NCBI GenBank assembly: GCA_947632635.1
Contig: CANRQA010000003.1
Span: 1 to 55,790, forward strand
DNA length: 55,790 nucleotides
Source: an uncultured Clostridia bacterium
Lineage (GTDB): Bacteria > Bacillota > Clostridia > TANB77 > CAG-465
Reading direction: 5' to 3'
Positions 31,021-36,619 of the stretch are shown here, in pieces. The notes below the pieces were generated by a model, which saw only the letters and a list, made by a program, of their open reading frames with translations, did no database searches and was not told the origin of the DNA. A program made the position numbers and the translations under genes. Position 1 is the stretch's first letter, and every line of letters starts with the position of its first letter.

Positions 31021-31095
31021 AAGTTTGAACTTTATTTTTTATGATAGCCATAACAATTTCCTTATTAAATGAATAAATATTTGAAAGATGGGCTA
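31021..31095 (-). pseudogene. Relic of an M14 peptidase gene 3' end
   Basis: The minus strand translates to HLSNIYSFNKEIVMAIIKNKVQT, compared with PLSNIDTFNKEIIANKKAVIHTIENII at the C-terminus of the intact gene 35471..36619. Confidence 0.5.
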
Positions 31096-31151
31096 TAAAG
31101 AATTTTTTATTAATATGTAAAAAAATATTGAGTTGTAGTAAATGTTTAAAT

Positions 31152-31188
31152 ATTTTTTATTTTATTTTATTTTATTTTATTTTATTTG
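31152..31188. repeat. (ATTTT)n pentanucleotide microsatellite
   Basis: About 6 units, same unit as at 13855; ~45 nt upstream of the -35 of the first CC-protein promoter. Confidence 0.9.
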
Positions 31189-31231
31189 AATTATAAAAAA
31201 ACATTTTTTACAAAAAAATCGCAAGATGTAC

Positions 31232-31260
31232 TTGACATAAAACTTAAAAAGTGATATAAT
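31232..31260 (+). promoter_or_regulatory. Consensus sigma-A promoter of CC-protein gene 1
   Basis: TTGACA-17 nt-TATAAT with TGn extension; near-identical copy at 34940-34968. Confidence 0.7.
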
Positions 31261-31314
31261 AACATTAGGTTGAATATAAACTTTAAAAATAATTTTTTTG
31301 AAAGGGGAAAAAAC

Positions 31315-31968
31315 ATGTTTGGATTTAACGTCAAGGAAAATGTTCGGGAGGCAGTTTCAAAATTGGAAAAAAGCAATAATGAGCAAAAAGAAAGATTGAG
31401 ACAATTGAGACTTTTGATGAAAGGAAAAGATGTGACACCTTGCATTGTGCCAAAAGTGGTGATATCGTCGTTGCTATCGCGCGATGAAGTGTTAGCTCTC
31501 GCTGCAGAAGAGAAGAAGGAACTTACATCGGTGGAAATAAAAGAAAATCTTAAAAATGGCGTATATCTGCTGTATGAAGATGATATTATTTCTACACCGA
31601 TATATTATAAGCCGATATCTTATAAAAAGAAAGAAAAGTGGGTGCCGGCAGGCTTCGAAGTTGCATTTCCACATATTCAGTATATTATAAGAAATGGAGA
31701 TGAAAAAACCAAGAGATATATGATTTCAACTGTTGAGAATAACGATTTTGGTCATGTATTTGGCGGGACAATTGGAGGCCGGAAGGTTCTCATTTTCGCT
31801 GATGCAGGAGACTTTACCGGTACGGAAATGTCCCAAAAAGTTGAAATCTATACCAACGAAAAGGAGGAGAAAATATATGGCTCGGGTAACGGCCGGGTAT
31901 ATAAAAAGTGCACTCCCCTTACGGACGAATTTAGAGGTTGGTATCTGTTAGAGGATATCTGCTGCTAA
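31315..31968 (+). CDS. Small protein ending ...GWYLLEDICC (CC-tail paralog 1, 217 aa), unknown family
   Basis: ATG after GGGGAAAAAAC. The C-terminal ~50 aa are conserved with 35024..35425, and third-position synonymous differences support coding. Visibly GC-rich with rare codons, including three in-frame CGG (31345, 31780, 31894). Confidence 0.75.
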   Translation: MFGFNVKENVREAVSKLEKSNNEQKERLRQLRLLMKGKDVTPCIVPKVVISSLLSRDEVLALAAEEKKELTSVEIKENLKNGVYLLYEDDIISTPIYYKPISYKKKEKWVPAGFEVAFPHIQYIIRNGDEKTKRYMISTVENNDFGHVFGGTIGGRKVLIFADAGDFTGTEMSQKVEIYTNEKEEKIYGSGNGRVYKKCTPLTDEFRGWYLLEDICC

Positions 31969-31976
31969 AGAAAAAA

Positions 31977-32013
31977 AGGACTTGTAACTTTTAATTAAGT
32001 TGCAAGCCCTTTT
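31977..32013. terminator. Intrinsic terminator of CC cassette 1 (identical copy at 35434)
   Basis: GGACTTGTAACTT-ttaatt-AAGTTGCAAGCCC plus T-run, preceded by an A-run (bidirectional); its descending arm encodes the last codons of the LysR gene. Confidence 0.8.
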
Positions 32014-32909
32014 TCTTTATTTTCTGATATAAGTTCAATAAATTTACTTGACGCAAAATTTAATGTATTATTTTTTAAAGTAATTATTCCTAAATCTCTT
32101 GACGGAATTTTAGGTTTTACTTTAATTTCATATAATTCTTTACTTTTTAACTCATATTTTATAAACTCTTTTGTAACATATCCTATACCAAATCCTGCTT
32201 TTATAAAATCTACAACAAGATTGTAACTTACTATTTCTATATCAGGCTTAAAATTAATATTATTTTCTTTCATGTAATTATTTAAAAATGCACGAGTATT
32301 TGATGGCTCTTTTTGAGTAATAATATTGTATTTTAAAAGTTCTTCTAATGAGAGAACCTTTTTAGGATCTTTTAAATATTTTTCACTGCAAGCAAAAGAA
32401 TCATGTAATTTAGCACAAACTTTAATATTTAAATCAGAATGATCTTTCATAGGCAAATTTGTAACAAGAAAGTCAATATATCCATTTTTTAGCCCTTTAA
32501 TTAAATTAGTAGTAAGTTCATTTGTAATAGTAATATCAATATGTGGATATAACTTATGAAATTTTTCAAGATAGGGCATTAAAAAATGTTTTGAAACGGT
32601 TGCACTTGCACCAATATGAATTTTTCCCTCTTCTAAATGAATTAGTGAGTTAAATTTATTATTAGCATTTTTAATTTCTTCTAAAATATTTTTAACATAT
32701 TGGTAAAATACGTTTCCCTCTGCAGTAAGTATAACACCTTTTTTAGTTCTAATAAATAAACTACCACCAAGTGCATTTTCGAGTTGTTTTATTGATTTTG
32801 TAACAGCAGGTTGAGAAATATATAATTGTTCAGCAGCTTTAGTAATATTTTGTGCATTGGCTACAGCATAAAATACTTTATATAAATTTAAATCTATATC
32901 ATCATTCAT
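31995..32909 (-). CDS. LysR-family transcriptional regulator
   Basis: N-terminal HTH LYKVFYAVANAQNITKAAEQLYISQPAVTKSIKQLE, substrate-binding domain of typical length; start set at MNDDIDL. Confidence 0.9.
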   Translation of the reverse strand: MNDDIDLNLYKVFYAVANAQNITKAAEQLYISQPAVTKSIKQLENALGGSLFIRTKKGVILTAEGNVFYQYVKNILEEIKNANNKFNSLIHLEEGKIHIGASATVSKHFLMPYLEKFHKLYPHIDITITNELTTNLIKGLKNGYIDFLVTNLPMKDHSDLNIKVCAKLHDSFACSEKYLKDPKKVLSLEELLKYNIITQKEPSNTRAFLNNYMKENNINFKPDIEIVSYNLVVDFIKAGFGIGYVTKEFIKYELKSKELYEIKVKPKIPSRDLGIITLKNNTLNFASSKFIELISENKEKGLAT

Positions 32910-34685: not shown

Positions 34686-34740
34686 GTAGAAAATAATAAC
34701 TGCAGTAGATTTATTGCAGTTATTATTTTTCCGTAACATT

Positions 34741-34815
34741 TTCAATAATATGTATTACAGCTTTTTTATTTGCAATTATTTCTTTGTTAAATACATCAAT
34801 ATTTGAAAGAGGGCT
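34741..34815 (-). pseudogene. Relic of an M14 peptidase gene 3' end (near-identical to 35484-35558)
   Basis: The minus strand translates to PLSNIDVFNKEIIANKKAVIHIIE, compared with the intact C-terminus PLSNIDTFNKEIIANKKAVIHTIENII. Confidence 0.65.
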
Positions 34816-34939
34816 GTAAAAAATGTTCAGTGATATGCTTAAAATATTAAATTAAGTTGTAATAAATGTTTAAAATATTTTTAGTTTTATCTGAATTATT
34901 TTAAAAAATATCACTCTTTTACAAAAATTTAATATATAC

Positions 34940-34968
34940 TTGACATAAAATTTAAAAAGTGATATAAT
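34940..34968 (+). promoter_or_regulatory. Consensus sigma-A promoter of CC-protein gene 2
   Basis: TTGACA-17 nt-TATAAT; differs from the 31232 copy at one spacer position. Confidence 0.7.
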
Positions 34969-35023
34969 AATATCGGGTTAGTTAAATAATTTCAAAAAAA
35001 TTTTTTAGAAAGGGTGTTTTTTT

Positions 35024-35425
35024 ATGCTGGACTTTACAACTGGAAAGGTAACTATTCCCAAAAATCGTGTACCGGAGTTTTTGGAAATGCTCGTAAATGG
35101 GGTTAAGGTTAATCCCGAAAGCCACAATGAGAGTTGTTCAGAGTTTTGTTTGAATGACAAAAAATATGGATTCCATATTAATGGTGGAGAAAAGGTCTCC
35201 TACGAAGGTAGGCTCAAAGCAACTCTTGAAGGGGGCAAAGAGGTAGAAGTCTATTTTGGAGCCAGTCAGCTTCTTGATACGGAAATGTCAAAAAGGGCTG
35301 AAAAATTCTCGAACGAAAAGGGCGAAACAATATATGTTTCGGATAACGGTAGGGCATATAGAAAGTGCACTCCCTTTACGGGTGAGTGGAGTGGCTGGTA
35401 TCTGTTAGACGATATCTGCTGCTAA
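35024..35425 (+). CDS. Small protein ending ...GWYLLDDICC (CC-tail paralog 2, 133 aa), unknown family
   Basis: Shares TEMS..E...NEK.E.IY.S.NGR.Y(K/R)KCTP(L/F)T.E..GWYLL.DICC with paralog 1; the N-terminal parts are unrelated; GC-richer than its flanks. Confidence 0.75.
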   Translation: MLDFTTGKVTIPKNRVPEFLEMLVNGVKVNPESHNESCSEFCLNDKKYGFHINGGEKVSYEGRLKATLEGGKEVEVYFGASQLLDTEMSKRAEKFSNEKGETIYVSDNGRAYRKCTPFTGEWSGWYLLDDICC

Positions 35426-35433
35426 ATAAAAAA

Positions 35434-35472
35434 GGACTTGTAACTTTTAATTAAGTTGCAAGCCCTTTTTTT
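35434..35472. terminator. Intrinsic terminator of CC cassette 2
   Basis: Same hairpin sequence as 31977-32013, followed by a T-run; shared by the convergent M14 peptidase gene. Confidence 0.8.
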
Positions 35473-36619
35473 ATATAATATTTTCAATAGTATGTATTAC
35501 AGCTTTTTTGTTTGCAATTATTTCTTTGTTAAATGTATCAATATTTGAAAGAGGAGCTATAGGATTACCATTTAGTCTTGATAATTCAATAGTTAGAGTA
35601 AGCACATCATTTAATTTAATTCTGTAGTAATCCATTACACCATATTTTAACTTTTCATTAATTAGTTTGTAGTTTGTATATTTTGAATATTCAAGCATTC
35701 CTTTAAGTTGTAAATTAAGCTGTGACGCATTCGTACATAACATATCTGGATAGCCGTATATTTCACCACCTGTTGAGTGATATGAAAAAATTGCAATTAA
35801 TTTTTCGTCACAATTTAGTGAGTATAAATTCATTATATAGTTATATAAAAAGAAATTTTCAGGACAATCTTTAAATGTTTTTATACCAGGGTAGGACATA
35901 GGACTTGGTTTTGTTACAGGAATATCGTTATATCTTAAATTTGCATATTTTTGTGCTTTTCTTAACTGTTTCATTTCTTTAAATTTATGTATTGAATTTG
36001 AGTTAATATCAACTCCTAATCCGTTTGCAGTCCAAATGCTTAAGTAATCTTCATTTAAATTACATTTTTTTAATATGCACTCAACACTTTTTCTTAAAGA
36101 AATATTACTAAGATTTTGCAAATTATTCTTAATAATTCCTAAAAATAATTTTTTCTCTTTTATATTATGTGTTGCTATAAAATCATCTGTATTATATAAA
36201 CTAATATATTTTTTAGAAATTTCTTCTAACTTTTTATTTGTTATATTTTTGTAATTACATGATAAATTGCTTGAAACAATTACATATCCCTCTGGGTTTA
36301 ATACAGGGATAAAGTGAAAGGTAAATTTATTTTTTAAACTGTTATATAACTTTTCGTCTTTTAATAAAGTTATAATAAATTCTAAAACAAAATATGTTGT
36401 TATTATTTCACAGCCATGTGTACACCCAATTAATAATACATGATTTTTTCCATTTCCAATTTTAAATGTTTCAATTTTGTAATTAAAAGTGGTGTAACAA
36501 TTTGTGTTTTCTCTTATTAATTTTTTATTTGAAGTTTTTTCTAAATAATATAGTATATTTAGTATATCACTATATGATAGTATGTATTTATTAAGATAAA
36601 TTTTATCCAATTTTACCAC
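35471..36619 (-). CDS. M14-family zinc carboxypeptidase-like protein
   Basis: GCTHGCEIITT (HxxE zinc motif), PVLNPEGY, FSYHSTGGEIYGYP (second His region). Confidence 0.7.
   Translation of the reverse strand: MVKLDKIYLNKYILSYSDILNILYYLEKTSNKKLIRENTNCYTTFNYKIETFKIGNGKNHVLLIGCTHGCEIITTYFVLEFIITLLKDEKLYNSLKNKFTFHFIPVLNPEGYVIVSSNLSCNYKNITNKKLEEISKKYISLYNTDDFIATHNIKEKKLFLGIIKNNLQNLSNISLRKSVECILKKCNLNEDYLSIWTANGLGVDINSNSIHKFKEMKQLRKAQKYANLRYNDIPVTKPSPMSYPGIKTFKDCPENFFLYNYIMNLYSLNCDEKLIAIFSYHSTGGEIYGYPDMLCTNASQLNLQLKGMLEYSKYTNYKLINEKLKYGVMDYYRIKLNDVLTLTIELSRLNGNPIAPLSNIDTFNKEIIANKKAVIHTIENII

Follow-up and report, generated by a model that had tools for sequence, protein, structure and literature searches.

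Arrays formed by tandem segmental duplication and unequal crossing-over occur in bacterial chromosomes. The epidermin precursor ends in ..YCC and is processed by EpiD, and scaffold-peptide pathways likewise have C-terminal cysteine substrates. Homology-facilitated illegitimate recombination during natural transformation is a mechanism named in two reports (PMC8116780, PMC5312590). Each of these offers a comparison with a locus in contig CANRQA010000003.1 of an uncultured Clostridia bacterium, analysed here over 55,790 nucleotides (nt), a stretch referred to below as the window. The locus holds two cassettes, each with a gene for an orphan protein that ends in Cys-Cys (CC1 and CC2). Each cassette is preceded by a fragment of a gene whose only intact copy, encoding an M14 zinc carboxypeptidase-family protein (hereafter M14), follows the second cassette. 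An initial annotation explained this arrangement by tandem duplication of whole units, each a peptidase gene beside a CC gene, followed by loss of most peptidase copies, and linked the peptidase to the Cys-Cys end. The analysis described here favours another account: the cassette unit probably recombined repeatedly at a hotspot, carrying the tip of M14 along.

The window has 26% GC and, judged by its M14 orthologues, belongs with uncultured gut Clostridia like 'Clostridium sp. CAG:465'. The gene order from 29.5 to 36.6 kb is rmuC (minus strand, as two open reading frames, ORFs), a DUF4143 AAA ATPase gene, CC1, a LysR gene (minus strand), a gene for a 285-residue (aa) nitrilase-like protein, a CoaB-like gene, CC2, M14 (minus strand), and ogt. 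All of the repeats listed in the initial annotation are present, each above chance in alignments, blastn and shuffle controls, and the cassettes are indeed homologous repeats, with a copy of the M14 3' end in each. The junctions are not assembly artefacts: all of them are spanned by independent contigs (L001–L006) recovered from other samples.

The copied M14 ends are termed relics here. Relic 2 (34726–34815, minus strand) corresponds to the last ~27 codons of M14 and is 91–94% identical to them: pairwise alignment of 34726–34812 with 35468–35554 gives 91% over 87 nt, and blastn within the window gives 93.7% over 79 nt (E 4e-29). Its minus-strand translation, SPLSNIDVFNKEIIANKKAVIHIIEN, keeps the M14 reading frame intact over 27 codons and matches the M14 counterpart, PLSNIDTFNKEIIANKKAVIHTIENII, at 85% over 27 aa (tblastn, E 3e-9). 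Relic 1 (31021–31097, minus strand), which reads IAHLSNIYSFNKEI..., is the more decayed of the two, as first described: its well-aligned core (31056–31097) is 86% identical to the M14 3' end over 42 nt (E 6e-8), and leftward the similarity is weaker, reaching ~31021.

Both relics break off at the same point, GCTATA|AA, equivalent to 35561 in M14 (..GAAAGAGGAGCTATA|). Beyond it, both run into homologous upstream sequence that starts with the TAAAAARTGTTCA motif. The shared breakpoint and the homology beyond it point to one original join, of the M14 tip to the repeat motif, that was propagated within the repeat unit. Searches of the window with M14 (tblastn and blastn) found no remnant beyond the two 3' tips. 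The relics are read as scars left at the junctions when a cassette was repeated, and not as the remains of whole peptidase genes: no more than the 3' tip need have been copied, and the supposed loss of most peptidase copies has no counterpart in the sequence.

Homology between the cassettes continues through the regions upstream of the CC genes. The CC1 upstream region (31098–31314, plus strand) comprises a degenerate 23-nt-repeat motif, a conserved block (31130–31150), an (ATTTT)n run, a promoter (31232–31260), and a ribosome-binding site (RBS). The CC2 upstream region (34816–35023, plus strand) comprises the motif (34817–34829), the block (34854–34874), a promoter (34940–34968), and an RBS. 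The two regions, at 13–17% GC, are 75% identical as a whole and 82% identical around the promoters (31223–31306 versus 34931–35014). The block, AAGTTGTARTAAATGTTTAAA, occurs twice in the window, once per upstream region, against 0.12 occurrences expected by chance. Both promoters read TTGACA-17-TATAAT with an extended −10 TG and score 12/12, as do only ten promoters in the whole window.

The TAAAAARTGTTCA motif has five matches against 0.65 expected, and it also makes up the left margin of the cassette upstream region. Three tandem 23-nt repeats carry it at 29587–29645 (plus strand), upstream of rmuC, between the rmuC promoter and the ATPase gene; besides its position at the left edge of the CC2 upstream region, it recurs at 380–415 of contig L007, which represents a second strain type (type B, below). 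These repeats could serve in protein binding or as a substrate for recombination. The (ATTTT)n run upstream of the CC1 promoter is a microsatellite of ~7 units (31150–31185), without counterpart upstream of CC2 or in L007.

Each cassette ends in the same 32-nt terminator, present in two exact copies (100% identity) against none expected. Copy 1 (31972–32020; stem-loop 31978–32009) overlaps the last codons of the LysR gene; copy 2 (35428–35476; stem-loop 35434–35465) is common to CC2 and M14. The terminator folds at ~−19.5 kcal/mol on both strands (z ~−6). Because it folds on either strand between A and T runs, it is judged bidirectional, and CC2 and M14 do converge on it as the initial annotation held. 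This terminator-type hairpin is the sole conserved inverted repeat at the cassette boundary; no Rfam family was found in the region, which gave only sub-threshold terminator-like matches. A further stretch, 34838–34862, is 76% identical to 31981–32005, so that sequence overlapping the conserved upstream block resembles the terminator core (TTAAATTAAGTTGTAA versus TTAATTAAGTTGCAA). The resemblance may reflect a decayed copy of the terminator, or simply coincidence in AT-rich sequence.

The genes within the cassettes are much less alike than their surroundings. CC1 (31315–31968, plus strand) encodes 217 aa ending in ..GWYLLEDICC, and CC2 (35024–35425, plus strand) encodes 133 aa ending in ..GWYLLDDICC. 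Clear homology is limited to the C-terminal 64 aa (55% identity), where the synonymous divergence (dS) is 0.91; the N-termini are essentially unalignable. The CC genes are thus homologous copies, as first described, over that C-terminal part and not clearly so over the rest. Both are compositionally foreign. They are the GC-richest stretches of the window, with a GC content at third codon positions (GC3) of 0.38 for CC1 and 0.42 for CC2, against 0.14 ± 0.05 for the window's long ORFs.

Comparison between strains gives CC1 a nonsynonymous-to-synonymous ratio (omega) of 0.51, with all indels in-frame. Together with the consensus promoters and terminators, this establishes the CC ORFs as real protein-coding genes. 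(The GC-rich stretches were also considered as structured RNA, a reading ruled out by omega < 1 and the in-frame indels.) CC1 evolves faster than its neighbours: its between-strain dS is 0.17, whereas M14 has 0.07 and rmuC 0.05.

The CC proteins belong to no described family. Searches of Pfam, NCBIfam, PHROGs and PADLOC returned nothing significant, even at E up to 10, and a PDB profile search returned only noise. A hidden Markov model (HMM) of the CC C-terminal domain, scanned against 1.84 billion cluster representatives, found one true relative (P0001), which is the type B orthologue, along with two repeat-protein false positives. A word-indexed homologue search with CC2 gave no return. Representative-based searches of this kind can miss family members hidden behind fragment representatives: the 90% cluster of CC2 is represented by a 56-aa N-terminal fragment, so that CC2 itself is missed by word-indexed and profile searches of representatives. 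Scans of genome, metagenome and viral contig collections found neither CC homologues (with the CC alignment) nor the terminator (as a DNA pattern), and tblastn against phages and plasmids found nothing. The CC family thus appears, on the sequences searched, to be confined to one species-level lineage. AlphaFold2 models were unusable (mean predicted local distance difference test score, pLDDT, of 38 for CC1 from a three-sequence alignment and 41 for CC2 from a single sequence). Read directly, neither protein has an obvious signal peptide; the CC proteins are cytoplasmic and probably highly expressed.

Other strains and species place the locus in context. Strain type B (contigs L007 and L025, from two other samples) has rmuC, the repeat motifs, one CC1-like cassette, the terminator, and M14; it has no relic, no ATPase gene and no LysR module. 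Its cassette upstream region is a mosaic, with a distal part 87–95% identical to that of CC2 and an RBS-proximal part identical to that of CC1, which argues for recombination between cassettes. Four related species (L010, L011, L012 and L018) have M14, rmuC and glmU in that order, with only a short AT-rich spacer. Adjacency of M14 and rmuC is therefore ancestral, and positions 29641–35470 of the window are inserted, strain-variable material. The comparison of related strains suggested by the initial annotation thus did reveal strains with one and with two cassettes.

The type B protein also bears on the Cys-Cys end, taken at first as the distinguishing feature of the family. In two independent samples it ends in ..EDVCR, and KYTP replaces KCTP, so that two of the three conserved cysteines are lost. 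Either the Cys-Cys end and one further conserved cysteine are dispensable, or the type B allele is inactive. The Cys-Cys terminus as the defining feature of these proteins is not supported. The vicinal-thiol C-terminus could bind soft metals or be redox-active, yet it is dispensable in one strain type. The best guess is that the CC proteins have an accessory, strain-specific role.

Divergence differs greatly among parts of the repeated unit: dS is 0.91 for the last 64 aa of the CC proteins, the upstream regions differ at a quarter of positions, relic 2 differs from M14 by 6–9%, and the terminator copies do not differ (0%). A CC dS of ~0.9 beside a relic at 6–9% does not fit simple duplication followed by divergence, and the history first proposed, a single tandem duplication, is unsupported on this account as well as on the unalignable N-termini and the identical terminators. 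The figures suggest that the CC paralogues long predate the most recent event behind relic 2 or, alternatively, that the flanks were homogenised by gene conversion.

These observations suggest a model for repeated recombination at the hotspot. The gap between M14 and rmuC is a strain-variable islet. Its basic unit, of ~0.75–0.95 kb, starts with the 23-nt-repeat motif and continues with the conserved block, a sigma-70 promoter of perfect consensus, a foreign-composition orphan ORF, and a bidirectional terminator. The repeat anatomy, the shared breakpoint, the strain differences, the ancestral M14–rmuC adjacency and the coding, foreign nature of the CC ORFs are observed; the order of events and the mechanism are inferred. 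The recombination that repeated this unit would have taken along the first ~90 nt past the terminator, namely the M14 3' tip. Each extra cassette would thereby come to be preceded by an M14 relic, and the relics would be inherited from one original breakpoint. The two CC genes would be old paralogues or alleles, and later recombination would have brought them together or kept them so, whether by unequal crossing-over, by gene conversion, or by Campbell-type integration of another strain's allelic cassette.

Several points weigh against this model. Two relics imply three original units, yet only two CC genes remain. Left of relic 1, where a decayed terminator would mark a lost third cassette, the best candidate is not significant (32 of 500 shuffles score as high). 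Type B lacks any relic, so either both were deleted or the array is younger than relic divergence suggests. Neither a recombinase nor a donor element was identified among the genes scanned (22256–43218). Finally, all three known cassettes adjoin M14, leaving room for a functional link; those cassettes represent one locus by descent, and their adjacency to M14 therefore counts as a single observation.

A variant of the repeated-recombination account, possible though less likely than not, invokes successive integration of small circular or linear DNA from other strains, by Campbell-type (single-crossover) or other homology-anchored events. Each import would consist of a cassette plus the 3' end of the neighbouring gene, and each event would leave a direct repeat of the anchor. 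A second structure of like kind lies beyond M14, at 37013–37834: 212 nt comprising the ogt 3' end and terminator (37013–37224) are repeated at 37623–37834 (98% identity). The ogt repeats flank a convergent gene for a 99-aa multi-pass membrane protein (37223–37522, minus strand), with a 12/12 promoter and a raised GC3 of 0.27, and this insertion is missing from type B (L025). The ogt architecture matches that of the CC cassettes, and supports a general process of duplicative insertion. An anchor–cargo–anchor (A-X-A) anatomy, as integration predicts, is found three times in 7 kb, at relic 1, at relic 2, and at the 212-nt ogt 3' end; the cargo is foreign in GC3, the scars are far younger than the CC paralogues, and all three insertions are missing in type B. 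A donor strain with CC2 alone at this site was not found, however, the type B arrangement is equally explained by pop-out deletion between repeats, and direct evidence for competence or circular intermediates is lacking.

The same three structures invite a more speculative reading. In each, a small foreign-composition gene with a perfect promoter is convergent to a native gene and shares its terminator, with a copy of the native 3' end on the far side. It is conceivable, as something of a long shot, that they reflect a specific, undescribed capture of single-gene cassettes at terminators; the CC proteins would in that case form a new family of accessory function, perhaps in defence, given the neighbouring gene for a PDC-S01 candidate ATPase.

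The lost-peptidase history, in which whole M14–CC units were tandemly duplicated, the extra peptidase genes decayed, and M14 processes the Cys-Cys end, is improbable. Certain features do suit it: an M14 3' fragment precedes each CC gene, CC2 converges on M14, the CC proteins have no obvious signal peptides, and M14 has an intact set of putative catalytic residues. The intact gene (35471–36619, minus strand) is a clade-wide core gene. Its product scores 44.8 bits against Pfam PF00246 (cut-off 21.6), with a match to the N-terminal third of the profile only, and a profile of 15 M14 orthologues matches carboxypeptidase B/O structures at E 5e-7. Residues H68, E71, H281 and E345, invariant in all 15 orthologues, fit an HxxE motif, a distal His and a catalytic Glu, and are assigned putative catalytic roles from their motif context (THGCE, YHSTGG, TIELS). 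Against the lost-peptidase history stand the identical relic breakpoints, with nothing of M14 past ~27 codons, and the type B orthologue, which ends in VCR. Moreover, none of 12 orthologous M14 loci in related species has a CC homologue (M14 abuts rmuC in four of them), and more than 100 M14 orthologue clusters compare with a single CC cluster. Comparative genomics thus lends no support to a functional pairing of M14 and CC, a link that the initial annotation had drawn; M14 is most probably a bystander, with a 3' end that happens to lie at the edge of the hotspot.

Less likely still is an integron-like or miniature integrative element, in which the cassette would be mobile in its own right and a site-specific recombinase would direct it to the M14 3' end. 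Direct repeats of a gene's 3' end flank the cargo, much like the attL and attR sites of gene-end integrators, and a conserved imperfect inverted repeat marks the cassette end. With its A and T runs, however, that inverted repeat behaves like an ordinary bidirectional terminator, no scanned gene in 22256–43218 encodes an integrase, transposase or recombinase domain, and searches of metagenome, viral, phage and plasmid collections recovered neither the terminator nor the cassette.

That the similarity is low-complexity noise or an assembly artefact, a concern at 26% GC overall and 13–17% GC upstream, can be given practically no credence, since E-values and shuffle controls contradict it, relic 2 stays in the M14 frame for 27 codons, and the junctions were recovered independently from several samples.

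The remaining genes of the islet have a different character. A LysR-family regulator gene (31995–32963, minus strand) stands divergent from two others: one for the 285-aa protein (33047–33904, plus strand), which has no Pfam family and a weak nitrilase-superfamily signal, and one for a CoaB-like ligase with a DFP C-terminal domain (33921–34685, plus strand), followed by its own terminator (34689–34730). The last is designated CoaB-like on the presence of the Pfam DFP domain (PF04127), with scores below the NCBIfam cut-offs (PRK06732, 189 bits versus 265; TIGR02114, 166.7 versus 217.2). The three genes are conserved together across the clade, in ~100 protein clusters of related Clostridia (loci L020–L024 were compared), and many related genomes keep the divergent module in varied neighbourhoods: parAB/gidAB, the rpoA ribosomal cluster, or a non-ribosomal peptide synthetase gene. 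Neither a CC gene nor an M14 gene was found near it in the other related genomes examined. The nitrilase-like and CoaB-like proteins may be an uncharacterised amide-forming or amide-hydrolysing pair. (Action of these two on the Cys-Cys tail was considered and ruled out, as other species keep the trio without any CC gene.)

The LysR gene records how the module entered the locus. Its orthologues end in ..IIMQK*, ..ILKDKK* or ..LILKK*, 5–8 residues before the stop of the window's gene, whose tail, ..ENKEKGLAT*, is read out of cassette terminator copy 1 over its last 6–8 codons. The inference that the last six codons (EKGLAT) lie in the terminator and that the end of this gene was remodelled is therefore sound, and it indicates that the module joined the cassette array secondarily. 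The native module and the ATPase gene would then have been captured into the array, with fusion of the LysR tail to the terminator.

The ATPase gene (29673–30986, plus strand), of native base composition, encodes AAA_14 and DUF4143 domains and matches PDC-S01, a candidate defence family in PADLOC (E 1.7e-60). Only the window's strain type carries this gene; type B lacks it.

Two features at the margins of the region deserve mention. At one edge, rmuC (28223–29507), a recombination-related gene that borders the recombining islet, consists of two overlapping ORFs, of 331 aa (Pfam RmuC positions 2–202) and 119 aa (positions 202–289); relatives have a single 408-aa gene. The split is a frameshift or pseudogene, or else a sequencing error. 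At the other edge, just past the ogt duplication, a gene at 37990–38670 encodes 226 aa that include a BRO-N domain, a feature typical of genes associated with phages. It is a further sign of the accessory character of the 29.6–38.7 kb region.

Together, these results make the locus a clean, small example of a hotspot between core genes that collects and reshuffles single-gene cassettes, here in an uncultured gut Clostridia lineage. They also illustrate that a gene relic beside a cassette need not be a clue to its function and may instead be a scar of recombination. Foreign codon usage and consensus expression signals make the CC family a reasonable target for functional work; nothing here ties its members to the peptidase, and the locus opens no long-standing question.

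How does the locus compare with described systems? Like the C-terminal-cysteine tailoring substrates, the CC proteins end in Cys-Cys, and they are encoded close to a peptidase gene and a CoaB-family gene. Unlike the epidermin system, the local gene is of the CoaB type (PF04127) and not of the flavoprotein decarboxylase type; the CC proteins are 133–217 aa long, their Cys-Cys end is not conserved, and the trio occurs clade-wide without CC genes. As with the orphan C-terminal modules of polymorphic toxin loci, such as contact-dependent inhibition (CDI) and Rhs systems, 3' gene fragments lie beside fast-evolving, strain-variable small genes. In contrast to those modules, the relic is on the strand opposite the small gene, the M14 product is no toxin with swappable tips but a conserved enzyme whose C-terminus is invariant, and immunity logic is not evident at the CC locus.

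Other parallels are with recombination systems. Campbell-type integration, and integrative elements that duplicate the 3' end of their target, produce the same A-X-A arrangement, in which the native gene stays intact, a partial copy lies beyond the cargo, and the cargo is compositionally foreign. Here, by contrast, the scanned genes include no integrase, the cargo is one small gene, and the anchor is only 87–212 nt. Tandem duplication arrays share direct repeats in the same orientation, a join point present in every unit (the M14 tip and the 23-nt motif), and a copy number that depends on the strain, one cassette or two. They differ in that the units of this locus are unequally diverged, combining coding parts that are ancient paralogues with scars and terminators that are young or homogenised, and in that unrelated native genes (the LysR module and the ATPase gene) are interleaved. 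The recombination mechanism at the locus is an ordinary one of known kind; the only mildly unusual elements are the orphan CC family and the convergent-insertion architecture that recurs there.

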